From the IMG/VR virus record IMGVR_UViG_3300032038_000013: DNA of 20,000 bases; one strand, written 5' to 3'. This DNA comes from an uncultured virus (IMG/VR IMGVR_UViG_3300032038_000013). Taxonomy: Duplodnaviria; Heunggongvirae; Uroviricota; Caudoviricetes. The translations under genes were made by a program, and so were the position numbers. Below are positions 3,954-17,470 of this stretch, one piece after another; within the stretch, counting starts at the first letter, position 1; each line of letters begins with the position of its first letter. The notes below the pieces were generated by a model that was not told the origin of the DNA, searched no databases, and saw only the letters and a list, made by a program, of their open reading frames with translations.

Positions 3954-3957
3954 ATAA

Positions 3958-3989
3958 AGGCAGTACATCAGTACTGCCTATTTTATTTT
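3958..3989 (+). terminator. Rho-independent terminator
   Basis: AGGCAGTAC-ATCA-GTACTGCCT followed by ATTTTATTTT, directly after a stop codon. Confidence 0.8.
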
Positions 3990-4042
3990 AAATCTTATTA
4001 ACAATTTACTATTTATTTATAAATAAATGTTAATTTGATTAA

Positions 4043-5678: not shown

Positions 5679-5703
5679 TTGTTGGAATAATATATGTTTT
5701 GTT

Positions 5704-5730
5704 ATGCAGAGCTTTGGCTCTGCATTTTTT
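5704..5730 (+). terminator. Rho-independent terminator
   Basis: ATGCAGAGC-TTTG-GCTCTGCAT followed by a T tract. Confidence 0.85.
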
Positions 5731-5810
5731 ATTTTAATACTTTATTAATTTTATTAAACTATTTTAACAAATAATTCTATATTTTATTAATAAATACATA
5801 AAAGTGATTT

Positions 5811-6152
5811 ATGGAAGAAGTAAAAGAATATGTAAGTAAAGATGTTGAACAAGAAGCACTTGAAGTTCCAACAGTACAAGTAATGCCTGAGACAGGTACA
5901 ATTATGGATGCAGTACAAATGTCTGAAGAGAATAATAAACAAAGAGAAGCAATGGAAGCTGCAATATCAAATGACCAAATGAAGAGATTTAAAGCAATGG
6001 CAAAAGCATGGCAAGAAGCTCATACACAAAAGGTTAGAAAATTTGATAAGGTAGGTCGTAATGATCCATGTCCATGTGGATCTGGTAAAAAGTTCAAGAA
6101 TTGTTGTATGAACAAAAAGAATTGGAATGAATTAGTTCCTGTAAAAAAATAA
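5811..6152 (+). CDS. SEC-C motif (zinc-binding) protein
   Basis: C-terminal [20 protein letters not shown], the canonical SecA C-terminal metal-binding motif. Confidence 0.9.
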
Positions 6153-6947: not shown

Positions 6948-7006
6948 TTGTAATAGTTACAAATATGTACTATATTATAATTGTGAAATTAATATAATAT
7001 ATATAA

Positions 7007-8071
7007 ATGATTGAACAAAAGAAATATTTGATAATTTACCATAAGGAAGATAATGATGGTGTTTTTTCAGGTGCATTGTTTTATGATTATTTAATTAATC
7101 GTATGGGATGCAAACTTGAAGATCTTTGTTTCATTGGTGCTGATTATAATATGCTTGCTGAATTTTCAAAAGACAATAAAGTTGAAGATCTTCATAAGGA
7201 TTTTGAAAATTTGATAATGACTGATATTTCTTTCAATGATGTTTCTTATATGAAGAAACTTTGGAAAGAGTTCGGTACTAATTTTGTTTGGTGTGATCAT
7301 CATGCTCCTATTATTAAAGCTTCATTTGAAAATAAGTTTAGTGATGTTCCTGGCATTCGAGATACAAAACGTTCTGCAATATTGAATGTTTGGAAATTCT
7401 TGTATGACCAATTTGATGAAGCTTACAATGAAAAGAAAGTTCCTGAGTTGCTTCGAATTTTATCAGGCTGGGATTCTTGGTCATATGAACGTGAAGGTTA
7501 TGAATTTGAATATGTTCGTAATATCAATAAGGCTGTAACAGTCAATTATGAACTTAAGCTTGGTGAAGCTCGTAAACTTGTTCATGATTTATACATGGTT
7601 TATATTGAACATAAGCCTTCAGGAAAGATGTCAGAGGTATTCAAAGATGGTTCATTGATTGAACAACTTCATGAAACTGGTAAGAAGTTGAATGAATATG
7701 ATGACCAAGTAATGCGAGATATCATTGAAAAATCAGGAGATCGTACATGGAAGCTTGCAATTTGGAATGAAGACAAACAAGAATTTTCATATCGAAATGC
7801 TTGTGCAATATTCCATCAAGGTCAGTCAAATTCAACATTCTTTAAGTCATTGATTGATACAAATTGTCAGAATGGAATTGTTTTCAAGCATCAACCAAAT
7901 GGAAACTGGGTAGTTTCATTGTATAATGTTAAAGATGGTGATTCATTCCACTGTGGAGAATTTATGAAGCGTTCTTACAAAGGTGGTGGTCATGCTGGAG
8001 CTGCAGGTTGTACATTGACAGAAACACAATTCATTAAAGTTTTGAAGTCGAAAATTCTTACCGATAAATAA
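7007..8071 (+). CDS. DHH/DHHA1-family phosphoesterase
   Basis: Motifs YH.EDNDG..S, TD, CDHH and C-terminal GGGHAGAAG. Confidence 0.9.
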   Translation: MIEQKKYLIIYHKEDNDGVFSGALFYDYLINRMGCKLEDLCFIGADYNMLAEFSKDNKVEDLHKDFENLIMTDISFNDVSYMKKLWKEFGTNFVWCDHHAPIIKASFENKFSDVPGIRDTKRSAILNVWKFLYDQFDEAYNEKKVPELLRILSGWDSWSYEREGYEFEYVRNINKAVTVNYELKLGEARKLVHDLYMVYIEHKPSGKMSEVFKDGSLIEQLHETGKKLNEYDDQVMRDIIEKSGDRTWKLAIWNEDKQEFSYRNACAIFHQGQSNSTFFKSLIDTNCQNGIVFKHQPNGNWVVSLYNVKDGDSFHCGEFMKRSYKGGGHAGAAGCTLTETQFIKVLKSKILTDK

Positions 8072-8125
8072 AATATTATTAAATTTTTGAGAGGAAATTT
8101 CATAAATTTTACATATAATATTTGC

Positions 8126-8255
8126 GTATCGTAGTACTTGAATAGGTAGTCCGGATTATTTTTACATATAGATAATTTGATATTACCTAAGATGATATTG
8201 GAGGCGAAAATATTAGTTACTTGGGTATGATTTTGTATTCATATCCAAGTTTTTT
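8126..8255 (+). ncRNA. Candidate structured small RNA or nrdD leader (three hairpins)
   Basis: Stem 8143-8189 (~18 bp, 4 G-U), stem 8193-8215 (loop GGAGGCGAA) and terminator stem 8219-8250. All wobbles are G-U on the + strand; no convincing ORF. The 5' boundary is a guess. Confidence 0.5.
8219..8255 (+). terminator. Rho-independent terminator
   Basis: ACTTGGGTATGA-TTTTGTAT-TCATATCCAAGT followed by TTTTT. Confidence 0.8.
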
Positions 8256-8309
8256 AGTCTTTATTTAAAAGGTGAAAATTATGTAAATAAATGTTAAAAC
8301 AATTCTATA

Positions 8310-8325
8310 TTTCTATATATAGAAA
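8310..8325. promoter_or_regulatory. 16-bp palindrome (NrdR-box-like core) upstream of nrdD
   Basis: TTTCTATATATAGAAA, abutting the WCTATATT motif at 8304-8311. Confidence 0.35.
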
Positions 8326-8357
8326 GGAAATTTAAAAATATATTTGTATGGAGATTT

Positions 8358-10733
8358 ATGACCGTAATCAAACGAGACGGAACTCCTCAGGAATATAACT
8401 TTATAAAAATTGTAGATGCAGTTACAAAGGCATTCAATTCAGTCGAGCAAACAGTTCCTGAGAAATTCCTTGAACAAGTTAAAGAGTCTGTAGAGAAAGT
8501 AATAATTAAGAACAATGGTAATGGTACTTCAGTAGAAGAGATTAATGACACAATTCAAAAAGAACTTATTAAGCGTAATAAGTTTGAAGTTGTGGAATCT
8601 TTTATAAATTATAGAAGAAAAAGAGAAGAGATTAGAGAGCAGAAATCTGATTTGATTAAAGATGTTCAAACAGCATTATTTGGTAAGAACATTCAAAATC
8701 AAAATGCTAACCTTGATGAAGAATCTTATGGTGGTCGTGTAGGGGAAGCTGCAAGTGTTGTTTGTAAAGACCAAGCTCTTAAGATGATGTCAAAGACAAG
8801 CCGTCGTAATCATGAAAAGAATATGGTTTATATCCATGATCTTGATGCTTGGGCAGATGGACGTCATAATTGCTTAACAATGCCACTTGATGAGCTTCTT
8901 GCAAATGGATTCACTACACGTCAGACAGATGTTCGTCCTGCCGGTTCAGTCAATACTGCTATGCAATTGGTTGCTGTTTTATTCCAATTACAATCATTGC
9001 AACAGTTTGGTGGAGTTTCAAGTTCACACTTAGATTGGACTATGGTACCTTACGTTCGTAAATCATTCAGAAAACATTATATCGTTGACTGGATTCAACA
9101 TTTGGATGCGTTCTATGAATTAGATATATTGTCTATGGATTATGAAGCATATAAACATTGGACAGAAAACAAAGTTACAGAATTTTATTTAGAAACAAAA
9201 TTAACAGATGAAGATTTCAAATTTGCAAATAAAGCAACTTTAGATCTTAAAATTAGACAAAGAGCACTTGATGATACAAAGAGAGAAACATACCAAGCAG
9301 TTGAAGGTATGTATCATAATTTGAATACATTACAAAGTCGTTCTGGTAATCAACTTCCATTTACTTCTATTAATTATGGAACTTGTACAGAACCTGAAGG
9401 TCGTATGGTAACTCGTGCATTACTTGATGTATCAATGGAAGGACTTGGTTCTAAAGGTGTTACTTCAATTTTCCCATGTGGTATTTTCCAATATATGAAA
9501 GGTGTTAATGATAAACCAGGAACTCCAAACTATGATTTGAAACGTCTTGCGTTAAAATCAACATCTATGCGTATATATCCAAATTATTGTAATGTTGACT
9601 GGTCAGTTAATGCAGGGTATGATAAAAATGATCCAACAACATATGTAAGTACAATGGGATGCCGTACATATAATGGTGCAGATATTAATGCAGAACCTGG
9701 TGTTAATCCACAAAGAAAAGATGGCCGTGGTAATATTTGTCCTGTTACTGTTATTCTTCCAACATTAGCATTAATTGCAAAACAAAAAGTTGATAAGAAA
9801 TGGGAAAAATCAGGAGCTGAATATGTTGCAAATTATAATGAAGCAGTATTTGAAGAATTTATGTCAATTCTTGATAAGAAGATTGGAGAAGCAAAAGATA
9901 CATTAATTGAAAGATTTAATCATATTGCTTCACAGCCAGCAGCATCAGGTAAGTTTATGTATGAAAACTGTACAATGTCAGGTTATAAGAAAGAAGAAGG
10001 TATTATATCTGCATTGAAGCACGGTACATTAGCATTAGGTCAATTAGGTCTTGCAGAAACATTACAGATTATTTTCAAATTAGATCATACAACTGAAAAG
10101 GGAATGAAATATGCAAAACAAATTGAACAGTTGTTTAAGACAAGATGCGCAGAGTTCAAACAAAAATATAAGTTGAATATTGGTGTTTATTATACTCCTG
10201 CCGAAAATCTTTGTAAGACTGCAATGGCTAACTTTAAGAGACTTAATCCTGGTTTTGAGCAAGAATATGTAACTTATTTAAGAGATAAAGACGGTAATAA
10301 GATAGATAAACTTTATTTTACAAATTCAATGCATGTTCCGGTTTGGCATGAATGTGATGTATTTGAAAAGATTGATATTGAAAGTCAATTGACTGGTTAT
10401 TCAAACGCAGGTTGTATTACTTATGTTGAATTGGATAGTACTTGTTATAATAACATAGATGCAATTGAAAAGATTGTTGATTATGCAATGGAACATGATG
10501 TACCTTATTTTGCAATTAATATTCCTTTGAATAGATGTGCAAAATGTGGTGAACCTATTTATGATGAAGAATTAACAGAATGTCCAAAATGTGGGTGTAA
10601 TGAAATTATTCGTTTAGGTCGTATAACTGGTTATCTTTCTACAACAATCGAACATTTTAATGCTGGAAAGAAACAAGAATTTGAACATCGTGTAGATCAT
10701 ATTGGTCAATCAATTTTTAATGGTTGTGATTAA
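8358..10733 (+). CDS. nrdD: Anaerobic (class III) ribonucleoside-triphosphate reductase
   Basis: N-terminal ATP cone (VIKRDG), YIHDLD..HNC, QFGG, LNTLQSRSGNQLPFTSINYG, MGCRT, TPAENL, YFTNS, CAKC/CPKC zinc site and RITGYL glycyl-radical loop. Confidence 0.97.
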   Translation: MTVIKRDGTPQEYNFIKIVDAVTKAFNSVEQTVPEKFLEQVKESVEKVIIKNNGNGTSVEEINDTIQKELIKRNKFEVVESFINYRRKREEIREQKSDLIKDVQTALFGKNIQNQNANLDEESYGGRVGEAASVVCKDQALKMMSKTSRRNHEKNMVYIHDLDAWADGRHNCLTMPLDELLANGFTTRQTDVRPAGSVNTAMQLVAVLFQLQSLQQFGGVSSSHLDWTMVPYVRKSFRKHYIVDWIQHLDAFYELDILSMDYEAYKHWTENKVTEFYLETKLTDEDFKFANKATLDLKIRQRALDDTKRETYQAVEGMYHNLNTLQSRSGNQLPFTSINYGTCTEPEGRMVTRALLDVSMEGLGSKGVTSIFPCGIFQYMKGVNDKPGTPNYDLKRLALKSTSMRIYPNYCNVDWSVNAGYDKNDPTTYVSTMGCRTYNGADINAEPGVNPQRKDGRGNICPVTVILPTLALIAKQKVDKKWEKSGAEYVANYNEAVFEEFMSILDKKIGEAKDTLIERFNHIASQPAASGKFMYENCTMSGYKKEEGIISALKHGTLALGQLGLAETLQIIFKLDHTTEKGMKYAKQIEQLFKTRCAEFKQKYKLNIGVYYTPAENLCKTAMANFKRLNPGFEQEYVTYLRDKDGNKIDKLYFTNSMHVPVWHECDVFEKIDIESQLTGYSNAGCITYVELDSTCYNNIDAIEKIVDYAMEHDVPYFAINIPLNRCAKCGEPIYDEELTECPKCGCNEIIRLGRITGYLSTTIEHFNAGKKQEFEHRVDHIGQSIFNGCD

Positions 10734-11056: not shown

Positions 11057-11313
11057 GCAGAACAAATAAATTCCGAACAAGTTATAAAACAAGAACAACA
11101 AAGTATCGTTCAAATCGTTTAATAGGATGGAATCATTTTAGAACAAGACCTTATGGACGAATAGGATGGGATTATAGTTATCAAAAATGGTATGATGAAG
11201 ACCGCGGATGGCATTTATCTGAAGACTTAATAACAATAGTAAACAAAAAAGGATATAGACAAAAACTAAAAAAAGAATTAAAAAATATAATTGACAAAGA
11301 ATGCATATATTAG
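11053..11313 (+). CDS. Small Arg/Lys/Trp-rich hypothetical protein (MSRT...)
   Basis: 86-aa ORF, ATGA-coupled upstream and overlapping the nrdG start. Confidence 0.7.
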   Translation: MSRTNKFRTSYKTRTTKYRSNRLIGWNHFRTRPYGRIGWDYSYQKWYDEDRGWHLSEDLITIVNKKGYRQKLKKELKNIIDKECIY

Positions 11314-11834
11314 ATATAACAGCTCCAGATATAAATAATGGTAATGGAATAAGAGTAACATTATGGGTTGCAGGTTGTAAACATAAATGTAAAGGTTGTC
11401 ATAATCCTTGGACATGGAATTTTAATGAAGGTAAATCATTTAAAGATAATATTCAAGAAATTTCAAATCAATTAACTTCTTGGTTAGAAAGAGATTATGT
11501 TGATGGATTAACAATTTCAGGAGGAGATCCATTATGTCAAGATGAAGATGGCCTTTATAACATTTTACAATTGATTACTTGGGTTAAATCAAATTTCCCA
11601 GAAAAAACTATTTGGGTTTATACAGGTTATGTTTATGAAGATTTACAAAAGGAAATAAATGAAAATCCAAATTGTGATCGTTCAATTGCATTAAGAGGAA
11701 TATTAGCAAGTATTAATGTTTTAGTTGATGGACCTTATATTGAAGAATTAAGAGATATTGCGCACTGTCCATTTAGAGGCAGTACAAACCAAAGATTAAT
11801 ATATTTGAATAATGGAAAAAGAGAAGATAAGTAA
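11301..11834 (+). CDS. nrdG: Anaerobic ribonucleotide reductase activating protein (radical SAM)
   Basis: NGNGIRVTLWVAGCKHKCKGCHNP (CxxxCxxC), GLTISGGDP, IWVYTGY, LVDGPYI, FRGSTNQR; downstream of nrdD. Confidence 0.97.
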   Translation: MHILDITAPDINNGNGIRVTLWVAGCKHKCKGCHNPWTWNFNEGKSFKDNIQEISNQLTSWLERDYVDGLTISGGDPLCQDEDGLYNILQLITWVKSNFPEKTIWVYTGYVYEDLQKEINENPNCDRSIALRGILASINVLVDGPYIEELRDIAHCPFRGSTNQRLIYLNNGKREDK

Positions 11835-12759
11835 TAAACAAGTTTTTATAAAATGGACTGGTTCAAAAAGAAAGCAAGCACCAGAAATTGTAAATAATTT
11901 TCCAAAAGAAATAAATACATATTATGAATGTTTTCTTGGTGGCGGGTCTGTTTTACATGAACTGTTAAATAGAATTTATTCATGCGAGATAAAATGTAAA
12001 AAGATTATTTGTTGTGATATTAATCCTGACCTTATTGGTATATGGAATATGTTGAAAAACAATAGACAAGAATTGTTTGATTATTATGTATCACAATATA
12101 ATGAAATAATAAGACGAAGAGATATTGCAAGAACTCAAACTGATGATGAAGTCGAAGTAACAAGACGTATGGGTACGCTTTATTATGAAAATAGAGATAA
12201 AATGAATAGTCTTCCTGTTGGTAGTGAAGAACGTATAAAATTGTTTTATTGGATTACCCGTACTTGTTTTAATGGACTTATAAGATATAATCCTAAAGGA
12301 AAGTTCAATGCATCATATCATGTTGGTGGTCGTAATGGAATAAAGCCATCAGAATTGCAAAATGTATTTGATGCTTGGGGTAAAGTAATTGATAATGTTG
12401 ATATTGAATTTATTTGTGATAATTATGATAAAGTAATATCCAATGCAAAAGAAGGTGATCTTATTTATATGGATCCTCCTTATGAAAAATTAATTGGTTT
12501 ATATATTACAAATACATTTAACAATATTGCATTATTTGAAAACATTAGAAAACTTACAAATAATAAAGTTAAAGTATTTATGAGTTATGATGGTAAGTCA
12601 GGTTCAACTGATTATACATCAGATTCAGTTCCTGATGATTTATTTGTTCGTCATATATATGTAAATTCAGGACATAGTTCATTTAAGAAATTAAAATCAA
12701 AATCTGCAGGTACAGATAATAAAGCAATGCTTTATGATTCATTATATATTAATTATTAG
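11812..12759 (+). CDS. dam: Dam-family (D12 class) DNA adenine methyltransferase
   Basis: KWTGSK, YYECFLGGGSV (motif I), DIN..LI, FNGLIRYN..GKFN, IYMDPPY (motif IV); no partner endonuclease visible. Confidence 0.9.
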   Translation: MEKEKISNKQVFIKWTGSKRKQAPEIVNNFPKEINTYYECFLGGGSVLHELLNRIYSCEIKCKKIICCDINPDLIGIWNMLKNNRQELFDYYVSQYNEIIRRRDIARTQTDDEVEVTRRMGTLYYENRDKMNSLPVGSEERIKLFYWITRTCFNGLIRYNPKGKFNASYHVGGRNGIKPSELQNVFDAWGKVIDNVDIEFICDNYDKVISNAKEGDLIYMDPPYEKLIGLYITNTFNNIALFENIRKLTNNKVKVFMSYDGKSGSTDYTSDSVPDDLFVRHIYVNSGHSSFKKLKSKSAGTDNKAMLYDSLYINY

Positions 12760-13234: not shown

Positions 13235-13708
13235 ATGGATATAGGAAGTAAAAGTGGATATCCTGCTGGTGCATTAAGTAATTTCTCACCGCATCCATTT
13301 GAAATTGATGGTGTTAAATGTAACTCAATGGAAGGTTTCTTACAAGGACTTAAATTTGAGTCAAAAGAAATGCAAGAATATGTATGTACATTAGTTGGAT
13401 ATGCTGCAAAGAAAAAAGGACACAATAAAAATTGGCAAGAAAAACAAACATTATATTGGAGAGGTGTTCCAATTAAACGAGATTCTGATGAGTATCAGAA
13501 TTTATTGAATAGAGCTTATAATGCAATGTATGAAAATTCAAAATTTAGAGCTGCATTAGAAGCATCAAAAGGAGCAACATTAACTCATTCAATAGGAAAG
13601 AATAAAAAGAGTGATACAGTATTGACAACTCAAGAATTTTGTTCAAGACTAACTTATTTAAGAGATAAAGGCAAATTACCAGTTACGGAAAATATATTTA
13701 ACAAATAA
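13235..13708 (+). CDS. NADAR-superfamily protein, T4 gp30.3-like
   Basis: YPAGALSNFSPHPFEIDG...SMEGFLQGLKF...LYWRG...FRAALEAS...LTHSIG...TVLT..EF matches the gp30.3 family pattern. Confidence 0.85.
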   Translation: MDIGSKSGYPAGALSNFSPHPFEIDGVKCNSMEGFLQGLKFESKEMQEYVCTLVGYAAKKKGHNKNWQEKQTLYWRGVPIKRDSDEYQNLLNRAYNAMYENSKFRAALEASKGATLTHSIGKNKKSDTVLTTQEFCSRLTYLRDKGKLPVTENIFNK

Positions 13709-13733
13709 GGCAGTACTTAAGTACTGCCTTTTT
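13707..13733. terminator. Bidirectional terminator (24-bp perfect palindrome)
   Basis: AAGGCAGTAC-TTAA-GTACTGCCTT plus T tract, between convergent genes. Confidence 0.85.
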
Positions 13734-13735
13734 AT

Positions 13736-14671
13736 TTATATTTCTGTATTTATACCCATCCAACAAGGACCATTTGCACCTTCTTGATTATAACATACTA
13801 AAATATAATTTTGATTATCAATAGTAACTGCAATTGGATCTGTTTGACGTGCTAAGAATGAAGTTTTAAAAGTAGGTTCCCAAATACTCCAATATTTTCC
13901 AGTTTCATCAACAAATACATCATATTCAATATTGTAAAATTTTGCCGGTACAATTATCCATACACGACGTCCTTGATCTACTGCAGTATCCCAATCAAAT
14001 GCCCATTTTGTTTTAGATTTACTGTTAATTAAACATAACCCATGACCATTTTTATTTGTTGTAGGGAATTTTCCAATTGTTTCTTGTGTATATGCCAATG
14101 ATTTAAGAGCTGCAGCATTTACACCAACAATTGTATCATTAGCATCCTTATTAAATATTCCTGTTTGAGCTTCTGATGCATAAGTAAATATATAACTTGT
14201 TGTATCTGTAGAAGGAGTTGTTCCACCAGTATCTCCTGTAGAACCTGTTGGACCGGTTGGACCTGTTGGACCTGTAGGATCTGTCGCACCTGTTGGACCG
14301 GTTGGAGTACTTCCACCACTTCCATTTTGAAACATTTGCCAAAGTTCAGCATCAGATCCACTAAATCCATGATCACGAGCCCAGTCTAAAACAGATTTTG
14401 TAACTAATACATTTTTAACTTCATCTTCTTGTAAAACTGTAAATAATAGTGTTTTAAACTCTTTATTTGACATTCCAGTTATAGAATCTTTTAATTTGTC
14501 AATAATTGACTTAATAGAGATTCTAAAATTAGAAGCAGTACCTCCAGTTGCTGCTGTTGGTTTATAAGCAACAATTAAATATGTTTCACCACCTTTAGTT
14601 TCAAAGTCAAAACTTGTATCTTGATTTAAATCTGAAATTTTCTTTGCTCTTATTTTTATTTCATTAGCCAT
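13736..14671 (-). CDS. Fibre-like/virion accessory protein with short collagen-like repeat
   Basis: N-terminal KKISDL motif, WARDHGFSGSDAELW motif (typical of collagen-associated phage fibre domains), GPT repeats and a beta-rich C-terminal domain. Confidence 0.65.
   Translation of the reverse strand: MANEIKIRAKKISDLNQDTSFDFETKGGETYLIVAYKPTAATGGTASNFRISIKSIIDKLKDSITGMSNKEFKTLLFTVLQEDEVKNVLVTKSVLDWARDHGFSGSDAELWQMFQNGSGGSTPTGPTGATDPTGPTGPTGPTGSTGDTGGTTPSTDTTSYIFTYASEAQTGIFNKDANDTIVGVNAAALKSLAYTQETIGKFPTTNKNGHGLCLINSKSKTKWAFDWDTAVDQGRRVWIIVPAKFYNIEYDVFVDETGKYWSIWEPTFKTSFLARQTDPIAVTIDNQNYILVCYNQEGANGPCWMGINTEI
14243..14306 (-). repeat. 9-nt periodic repeat encoding (GPT)n
   Basis: ACCTGTTGGACCGGTTGGA occurs at 14243-14261 and 14288-14306. 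Confidence 0.85.
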
Positions 14672-14694
14672 AATTCATTAATATTAATTATATA

Positions 14695-14720
14695 TAAAAA
14701 TAATCATACATTACTATATT
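14695..14720. promoter_or_regulatory. Back-to-back divergent promoter motifs
   Basis: ATTATTTTTA on the - strand (14695-14704) and ACTATATT on the + strand (14713-14720). Confidence 0.55.
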
Positions 14721-17388: not shown

Positions 17389-17470
17389 ATATTTTTAGAA
17401 ATTATTTATATAATATATTACATTTTGTATGTAAGAATTACATATAATATTTGAATTTTTTTATTTATGT

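Follow-up and report, generated by a model that had tools for sequence, protein, structure and literature searches.

A conserved, terminator-bearing non-coding element upstream of nrdD in giant rumen phages as a candidate nrdD leader

The DNA analysed here, called the window throughout, is the 20,000-nt stretch of the uncultured virus record IMGVR_UViG_3300032038_000013 (Caudoviricetes). A gap of 286 nt (8072-8357) separates a DHH/DHHA1 phosphoesterase-like gene (7007-8071; Pfam below cut-off, PHROG 'DHH phosphoesterase' 4e-18) from nrdD (8358..10733, + strand), which encodes an anaerobic ribonucleoside-triphosphate reductase with an ATP-cone (Pfam NRDD 3e-129, ATP-cone 9e-18). On the + strand, the gap contains, in order, the promoter-like motif P_A (TTACATATAATATTTG, 8109..8124), a long variable hairpin (P1 or hairpin 1, 8143..8189), a linker with the conserved sequence (U)AGAGGCGAA(A) (8193..8215), an intrinsic terminator (8219..8256), GUCUU past the U tract (8257..8261), an inverted repeat (P3, 8303..8324) and the conserved sequence TAAAAATATAT (8333..8343). 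The part reaching from P_A to the terminator, referred to below as the element, is conserved, keeps a fixed place and strand relative to nrdD, is single-copy, and combines a hairpin and a terminator with a complementarity between the two. It is described as a new RNA family of a known sort, either a terminator-bearing leader or a phage small RNA (sRNA), so far from one clade of rumen giant phages, and it probably gates or accompanies nrdD.

P1 pairs UAGGUAGU with AUUACCUA and CGGAUUAUUU with AGAUAAUUUG (18 pairs, four of them G-U), and the linker can form a small hairpin 2 (P2) of seven A-U/G-U pairs with the loop GGAGGCGAA. The terminator has a 12-bp stem (8219-8250) with four G-C pairs, an 8-nt loop and the run UUUUUU; its stem and U tract were the only terminator-like site found in 7000-9000 by a terminator scan. 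The positions and sequences of all these features, as given in a preliminary description made from the DNA letters, were confirmed, as was its remark that the wobble pairs are G-U on the + strand. The + strand also folds better than the - strand: the region 8125-8260 reaches -35.7 kcal/mol (z -3.79, 1/200 shuffles as good) on the former and z -1.93 (11/200 shuffles as good) on the latter, so that the fold passed the comparison with shuffled sequences suggested earlier. For the whole gap, z was -4.14 with 0/200 shuffles as good, and for hairpin 1 by itself about -2.5. Rfam at gathering thresholds gave 0 matches in the whole 20-kb window, and at E up to 10 the region 7950-8450 matched only rox2 and snoU83 at chance level (16 bits each). 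This agrees with the preliminary description, which had seen no known riboswitch motif; its proposal of a novel structured element is supported for an element that is conserved, strand-specific, non-coding and without an Rfam match. A second copy was not present in the window.

The nrdD-upstream gaps of two loci found by protein search, L001 (376 kb; DHH gene upstream) and L012 (254 kb), were recognisably homologous. A metagenome scan with the pattern CTTGGGTA N10-34 CAAGTNTTTTNGTCTT returned 24 loci, 19 of which are homologues carrying the element before nrdD (16 different sequences) and five of which are chance matches; conservation in relatives, on which the preliminary description had staked its proposal, was thereby found. 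Among these loci, L084 does not differ from the window, L091 and L097 lie on the contigs of L001 and L012, respectively, and L101 equals L102. Alignments comprised the window and 16 or 17 loci, amounting to 15-16 distinct rows, with L084 and L102 left out as identical; L098, which is near-identical to the window, was left out of alignments A4, A6 and A8. The sequences CTTGGGTA, CAAGT, TTTT and GTCTT are invariant through the design of the search pattern. The contig of L001 (G001), a 376-kb relative that is 98% complete, was used for genome-wide counts. The homologues do not contain a conserved leader open reading frame (ORF): the ATG at 8192 is absent in most of them, and ATGs after GAGGC lie in three frames or are missing. 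A leader-peptide attenuator was rejected, since neither a start codon nor a frame is conserved across the homologues.

In every homologue, the nrdD ATG lies 80-135 nt past the terminator block on the same strand. The upstream ORF differs between rows, being DHH-like in 11, IF-1 in 4, a Pol-beta-type nucleotidyltransferase in one (L089), an unknown ORF in one (L100) and unreadable in one (L095). The mere 3' untranslated region of the DHH mRNA, which the preliminary description had named as the case that would undo its proposal, is unlikely, because the same element follows IF-1, the nucleotidyltransferase or the unknown ORF elsewhere. The IF-1 homologues directly upstream of the element were identified at L081:1127-1342 (Pfam eIF-1a 1e-25) and L085:1178-1393 (5e-24), and the upstream ORFs of L088 and L097 have the same C-terminal sequence as these two. 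In G001, the element is single-copy: model R1 matched once with 82 bits, and the next matches (<=24 bits) are plain terminators without the conserved blocks. Seven nrdD loci of greater distance, 54-75% identical to the alignment, were also inspected, and UACCUAAG, GAGGC and the terminator occur in 0/7 of them. An TATTTTTATATAC motif, the one found in the apex of P1, precedes the ATG by 41-47 nt in 3/7 (L112, L113 and L115), and a P_A-like motif lies about 105-110 nt before it in 2/7. Some of these loci thus keep promoter motifs without the blocks and the terminator, which argues that the motifs belong to nrdD and that the element lies inside its leader.

Searches beyond the metagenome loci returned few relatives. 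The exact 16-mer ACTTGGGTATGATTTT occurred in 55 stretches of viral contigs, 54 of them chance matches and one the contig of L001; two further patterns found only the contigs of L001 and L012 and chance matches in coding regions. The pattern ACCTAAG..TAGAGGCGAA, which avoids ascertainment by the terminator, gave 24 stretches in viral contigs, all of them coding sequence in unrelated phages, with 0 homologues. In 185,579 bacterial and archaeal species genomes, the terminator pattern gave one chance match in coding sequence, and therefore no bacterial copy exists at that stringency.

Between the window and L080, the identity of the element is 0.87, as compared with 0.37 at four-fold synonymous sites of nrdD and 0.62 at those of the DHH gene (chance, 0.43). 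Judged by these identities, the element is under purifying selection, being more conserved than the synonymous sites of its neighbours. The conservation is uneven along the element: identity of the P1 region is near random between the DHH and IF-1 groups (0.44-0.46) and amounts to 0.35-0.54 in 11/15 comparisons, and UACCUAAG and AGAGGC(G/A)A are retained between the same groups. In L090 and L093, the NrdD N-termini are 99% identical to that of the window with an element identity of only 0.68-0.69, a mismatch that points to recombination breakpoints between the terminator and the ATG.

P1 with ACCU in its 3' arm is part of the minimum-energy fold of 15/17 rows, with energies from -5 to -20 kcal/mol, z-scores from +0.25 to -5.2 and a length that varies by about 20 nt. 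On an alignment fitted to the structural model, which leans towards the model, its inner stem is 73.8% paired. The base of P1 is formed by UAGGUAGU as the 5' arm (segment 1) and UACCUAAG (8184..8191, + strand) on the 3' side (segment 2). One compensatory change was found there, UAGG/CCUA in most rows against CAGG/CCUG in L090; the close relative L093 is mismatched at this site. Compared with shuffles, the duplex of segments 1 and 2 reached p<0.05 in 5/16 sequences and p<= about 0.10 in 10/16. The apex of P1 carries the block TTATTTTTACATATA (8156..8170, + strand), which is nearly invariant (17/17 rows).

The linker is conserved in another way. P2 has an energy of 0 to -2.1 kcal/mol (-2.1 in the window), belongs to the linker's minimum-energy fold in 7/15 distinct homologues, and was better than flank shuffles at p<0.05 in 0/15. 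It is 84.8% paired on the model-fitted alignment, with double changes at 5/7 pairs, as against 63.3% and 1/7 pairs on an unfitted MAFFT alignment. The conservation of the linker resides in the sequence (U)AGAGGCGAA, and hairpin 2 is marginal. Thus, of the three consecutive hairpins claimed in the preliminary description, hairpin 1 and the terminator hold up and hairpin 2 does not, its energy being no better than chance. Within the linker, GAGG(C/U) is invariant in the homologues, GGAGGC being present in 4/17 rows and AGAGG(C/U) in 13/17. The suggestion that an exposed GGAGG loop serves as a ribosome or protein decoy is not borne out: GGAGG occurs in 4/17 rows, it would be exposed by a marginal hairpin, and the listed gene starts of this phage have no regular Shine-Dalgarno sequence.

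The terminator, with the 5' arm ACUUGGGUAUGA (segment 3), is kept in 17/17 homologues and is 97-98% paired, a figure partly fixed by the search pattern. It varies by one-sided G-C/G-U changes in the 3' arm only, and compensatory changes were found at the two top pairs. Past the U tract, GUCUU can pair with GAGGC at 8201-8205 in the RNAalifold consensus; the pairing is 100% compatible, and one C to U change still pairs. GTCTT is fixed by the search pattern, yet it is also present in L001 and L012, the loci obtained by protein search. This pairing would exist only in read-through RNA. Over the whole model-fitted alignment, pairing amounts to 81.5% of cells, with a covariation score of 0.216; slid partners give 37-46% and 0.05-0.08.

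Segment 2 also has a relation to the terminator. UACCUAAG is complementary to CUUGGGUA (8220-8227) at the base of the terminator 5' arm over eight pairs, one of them a wobble, so that an upstream segment can pair with the terminator 5' arm to the exclusion of the terminator itself; segment 2 is thus a candidate antiterminator strand. CCU(A/G)AG is found in 17/17 rows and lies outside the search pattern. The two sequences pair in 98.4% of cells, and the sole variation is A to G at two positions with the pairing kept. Segment 1 (UAGGUA) resembles segment 3 (UUGGGUA), and in L090 and L092 (UACCCAAG) UACCUAAG is one base off the terminator's own 3' arm. When nascent RNA was folded up to the terminator loop, segment 2 lay in P1 in nine of the 17 rows, in the antiterminator in seven and unpaired in one, and the two states are therefore close in energy. 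The alternative pairing of 8127-8132 with 8192-8197 mentioned in the preliminary description is possible as well.

On these grounds, we tentatively read the element, with somewhat less than even confidence, as a transcription attenuator, a leader that acts in cis on nrdD and whose intrinsic terminator is conditional. This reading is favoured because the place and strand are fixed in four upstream contexts, the element is single-copy, and its layout is that of an attenuator, and also because P_A-like and TATTTTTATATA motifs precede nrdD in sister clades that have no terminator. Transcription would start a few bases past the 8109-8124 motif, possibly also at the common promoter motif in the P1 apex. 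Four interlocking segments would be involved, namely UAGGUA (5' base of P1), UACCUAAG, CUUGGGUA (terminator 5' arm) and UAUCCAAG with the U tract. If segments 1 and 2 form P1, segments 3 and 4 would form the terminator and the polymerase would stop near 8255 and release an RNA of some 125 nt; if segment 2 is free, it would pair with segment 3 over 8 bp, the terminator would be blocked, and transcription would proceed into nrdD. The working of this switch, its trigger (a metabolite, start-site choice or a protein of the phage or the host) and the positions of transcript start and end are what we infer from the layout. A more specific version, which we consider rather improbable, has the start site decide termination, or a metabolite or phage protein flip the same switch, so as to control anaerobic deoxynucleotide supply. 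In its start-site form, RNAs from the upstream promoter would contain the P1 5' arm, fold P1 and stop at the terminator; those started at the apex would be without this arm, and UACCUAAG would pair with CUUGGGUA, allowing read-through into nrdD.

Several observations weigh against an attenuator. The base of P1 is only 62.5% paired on the model-fitted alignment and is weak or absent in 6/16 sequences (missing in L100). The pairing of UACCUAAG with CUUGGGUA has 0 double changes and its partner CTTGGGTA is fixed by the search pattern; moreover, in an AU-rich leader, a match of 8 bp that includes one wobble is nothing rare in itself. With 67-98% identity in the N-terminal part of NrdD, the homologues represent a single and rather narrow clade of phages, and neither a ligand-pocket-like multi-helix junction nor an Rfam family match was seen in the element. 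The promoter-like WCTATATT (8304) and TAAAAATATAT (8333) lie downstream of the terminator, and therefore read-through may not be needed for transcription of nrdD. Finally, RNA cover of the locus consists of assembled contigs, which give no starts, ends, strand or level, and uncovered parts carry no meaning. Ten RNA-library runs contain part of the stretch, and the four that were compared all do so in this form. In runs X4 and X5, a contig ends at 8123, coinciding with an overlapping contig that starts at 8094, and the 8123 ends therefore look like assembly branch points between strains and not like transcript ends. In run X4, a 989-nt contig matches 8094-8212 exactly and continues with the sequence preceding and starting gene 5811 (CATAAAAGTGATTTATGG...; window 5796-5820); it reflects either an assembly chimera or a strain in which a different gene adjoins the 5' part of the element.

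The promoter-like motifs were examined for recurrence. P_A was found by regular expression in 15/17 homologues (consensus TTTWCAWATAATATTTR), with a variant in L085 and none in L089. Its 15-mer is found again at window 17439-17453, upstream of gene 17504 and at the head of a + strand gene cluster. Of the six one-mismatch copies in G001 (three in the reversed control), one stands in tandem with ACTATATT before a gene. P_A is taken as a promoter because the motif recurs in promoter positions, including one before a transfer-messenger RNA (tmRNA) gene, and the promoter-like 16-mer of the preliminary description gains weight from the copy at 17439-17453 and from the one-mismatch copy at the tmRNA gene. 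The latter, ACAAATAATATTTG, lies 15 nt before the phage tmRNA gene at L106:1529-1935 (+), corresponding to about 103338-103744 of contig C1 in G001. This phage-encoded tmRNA of the 376-kb relative was confirmed by ARAGORN (tag ANDELVDDAWLNSWEYRMAA*).

The P1 apex block, which has the form (R)TTATTTTTAnATATA across the homologues, is a copy of the common phage motif TATTTTTATATA. In the window, TATTTTTATATA(W) is also found at 14689-14703 (-), 17 nt before a tail-fibre-like gene. G001 has 38 copies versus 21 in the reversed control, and an ORF starts 8-30 nt past the motif in 13/30 copies examined; the genes behind it are mixed, including a deoxynucleoside monophosphate kinase, an exonuclease, a glycosyltransferase and a head-like protein. 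Because the motif is common in these phages upstream of genes, the conserved 'loop' of P1 is best read as an embedded promoter-like motif and not as a specific RNA loop. The third motif, WCTATATT, noted earlier at 8304, did prove to be a recurrent gene-upstream motif, with 11 copies in the window versus 5.5 expected; 8/11 lie 14-56 nt before + strand ATGs (129, 3012, 5776, 6969, 8304, 10737, 14713 and 17471, + strand). It is probably a phage promoter element. The inverted repeat P3 (UUCUAUAU..AUAUAGAA, + strand) overlaps WCTATATT. Its arms TCTA..TAG(A/G) occur in 17/18 rows; in 15 of the 17, they stand at a distance of 32-38 nt from the ATG. The pair flanking them is U-A (8 rows), G-C (3), A-U (2) or A.A (4), the loop measures 4-12 nt, and L101 has one U.G wobble on the + strand. 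In L083 and L092, about 40 extra nt lie between the TCTA..TAGA repeat and the ATG, in which the AATAAATATAT block occurs once more, together with a small inverted repeat (ACATGTC..ACATGTG), and the leader grows to 118-135 nt. Further downstream, TAAAAATATAT (+ strand) lies 12-16 nt before the nrdD ATG and contains an AAATATA that is invariant in 18/18 rows; it may be a promoter -10 or an initiation region.

This accumulation of motifs raises the explanation that the gap has no dedicated RNA function, being a stack of promoter motifs of different classes with a terminator that insulates nrdD from transcription arriving from upstream, hairpin 1 merely arising from the AT-rich promoter sequence. 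Much of the conserved sequence is indeed promoter-like (P_A, the TATTTTTATATA apex block, WCTATATT and TAAAAATATAT), hairpin 2 is no better than chance, the P1 z-scores are modest, and the support for P2 depends on the alignment. We nevertheless judge it improbable, as it leaves unexplained both the invariant UACCUAAG and AGAGGCGAA beside near-random neighbouring hairpin sequence and the conserved terminator stem, which is unique in the 376-kb genome, the other terminators of the window being of a different, repeated family. Nor does it offer a reason for keeping a promoter directly upstream of an unconditional terminator.

A standalone sRNA gene is a possible alternative, less probable than an attenuator. 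The RNA would measure about 125 nt from 8109-8124 or about 75 nt from the P1-apex motif, always ending at the terminator; its single-stranded AGAGGCGAA and ACCUAAG would act in trans by binding a target RNA or a protein, and nrdD would be transcribed from the 8304 and 8333 motifs. The element has the outfit of such a gene, a promoter motif of its own, of the kind that stands before the tmRNA in the relative and whose activity is judged from its recurrence, and a strong 12-bp terminator with a U tract. In addition, the conserved blocks are unpaired or weakly paired, like sRNA seed regions, promoter-like motifs lie between the terminator and nrdD, and modular recombination with breakpoints between the element and nrdD is seen in L090 and L093. 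However, an RNA acting in trans would have no need to stay at one place and on one strand before nrdD across four upstream contexts. The linker is no more complementary to the nrdD initiation region than expected by chance (p 0.28-0.97 in 18/18), and the sole perfect complement of AGAGGCGAA in the window or G001 is the opposite strand of the element itself, near matches being at control level. Taken together, the fixed nrdD linkage and the alternative pairing lean towards the attenuator, whereas the downstream promoter motifs lean towards the sRNA.

Terminator/antiterminator leaders are known as transcription attenuators, as expression platforms of riboswitches and as protein-dependent leaders of the BglG/LicT or PyrR type. 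Like these, the element has a promoter motif, four segments of which the second can pair with the first or the third and the third with the fourth, a U tract and a position directly upstream of the gene that would be regulated, and its alternative states are close in energy. It differs in having no known effector, no leader peptide, no Rfam family and no covariation proof of the antiterminator, and in carrying a promoter-like motif inside the anti-antiterminator hairpin. Genes of ribonucleotide reductases (RNRs) are controlled by riboswitches in some bacteria, such as the 2'-deoxyguanosine-II riboswitch in Mesoplasma and the cobalamin riboswitch before nrd operons. The present element shares with them the setting of a structured non-coding leader before an RNR gene; it is phage-borne, precedes the class III gene nrdD, does not match the Rfam models and has a far simpler architecture.

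A small-molecule riboswitch, for instance one sensing a nucleotide or deoxynucleotide and acting through the same terminator and antiterminator, would be a special case of the attenuator. The gene context and the conserved unpaired nucleotides adjoining the expression platform speak for it. It is nonetheless very unlikely, as the relaxed Rfam search gave no riboswitch match, the only hairpin is a variable one, conserved junctions and internal loops are absent, a promoter motif makes up the conserved apex, and P1 changes in length and has lost its base in L100.

Phage systems offer a further comparison: the 6S RNA of lambda pR'-tR' with Q antitermination, the lambda oop RNA and the HK022 put RNA. 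As there, a phage promoter would be followed by a terminator within 100-200 nt, yielding a short RNA unless the polymerase is made terminator-resistant, and by analogy the conserved RNA or DNA blocks between promoter and terminator could be a loading site. Unlike those systems, the element is tied to one gene and not to a late operon; no Q-, N- or put-like component was identified, no test for one having been made.

Three other candidates were rejected. NrdR boxes, the operators of the NrdR repressor before nrd genes, are 16-bp palindromes with fixed spacing, usually in tandem. The CTATATATAG within the palindrome 8311-8324 resembles their core and lies before an nrd gene; the arms in the homologues are 4-12 variable bases apart and a tandem second box is lacking, and the repeat was treated as a non-member. 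The P1 apex (UAUUUUUA) could also pair over a distance with UAAAAAUA upstream of the ATG; in L091 and L095, an uncompensated mismatch interrupts this pairing, which was regarded as an AU-rich coincidence. An outer helix between the promoter motif and AAAUAUUA was discarded as well, since AAUAUU is complementary to itself and transcription probably does not include the promoter motif.

The source of the DNA is an uncultivated giant rumen phage, as the relatives of the DHH protein sit on viral contigs of 70-554 kb and the sequencing runs containing the stretch are bovine and sheep gut libraries. A distant blastn search of 7000-9500 against GenBank phages gave no close relative and no intergenic homologue, the matches being weak and restricted to coding sequence (Thomasclavelia phage nrdD and Lak Prevotella phages). 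The host may belong to Bacteroidota, as suggested by the weak Lak-phage matches and by the listed gene starts of the window, which have no regular Shine-Dalgarno sequence. In the same gene row as nrdD, a Pfam search identified an nrdG-like radical-SAM activase (11301-11834), and a Dam-type N6-adenine methyltransferase is encoded at 11812-12759. A homologue of T4 gp30.3 is located at 13235-13708 (Pfam Phage_30_3, 3e-58). The gene at 13736-14671 (-) encodes a tail-fibre-like protein with PHROG tail fibre and collagen-like matches; its 9-nt periodic repeats at 14214-14312 (-), seven copies in register, encode a collagen-like Gly-X-Y stretch. Three similar G+C-rich hairpins with T runs (AAGGCAGTAC..GTACTGCCTTTTT type) form terminators at gene ends (3957-3995, 5703-5741 and 13707-13745), and the terminator upstream of nrdD is unrelated to this family in sequence. 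The window contains no tRNA or tmRNA. In L092, nrdD is broken after codon 266 by TAA and an AT-rich insertion (798 nt past the ATG, oriented locus position about 2454), within which a further ORF with CxxC-type motifs runs for at least 150 codons in a different frame; the insertion may be an intron or homing-endonuclease insertion. The nrdD gene of T4 reportedly carries an insertion of this kind.

Among the papers listed on nrdD, riboswitches and phages and on RNRs of rumen or Prevotella megaphages, titles and abstract openings mention no such element; in passages of two articles (PMC3653736, PMC3185647), riboswitches appear only in a reference and in a software name. Should the element turn out to be only a spacer or an sRNA, interest in it would be local. 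The motifs TACATATAATATTTG, TATTTTTATATA and WCTATATT are usable for annotating giant rumen phage genomes. Giant rumen phages have, to our knowledge, not been cultivated, and hardly anything is known about the timing of their gene expression. If the attenuator reading is true, the element would be among the first candidate cis-regulatory RNAs of these phages and would be tied to the anaerobic RNR; with about 250 nt, it makes a short, testable construct on how a phage may control its deoxynucleotide supply in an anaerobic host.

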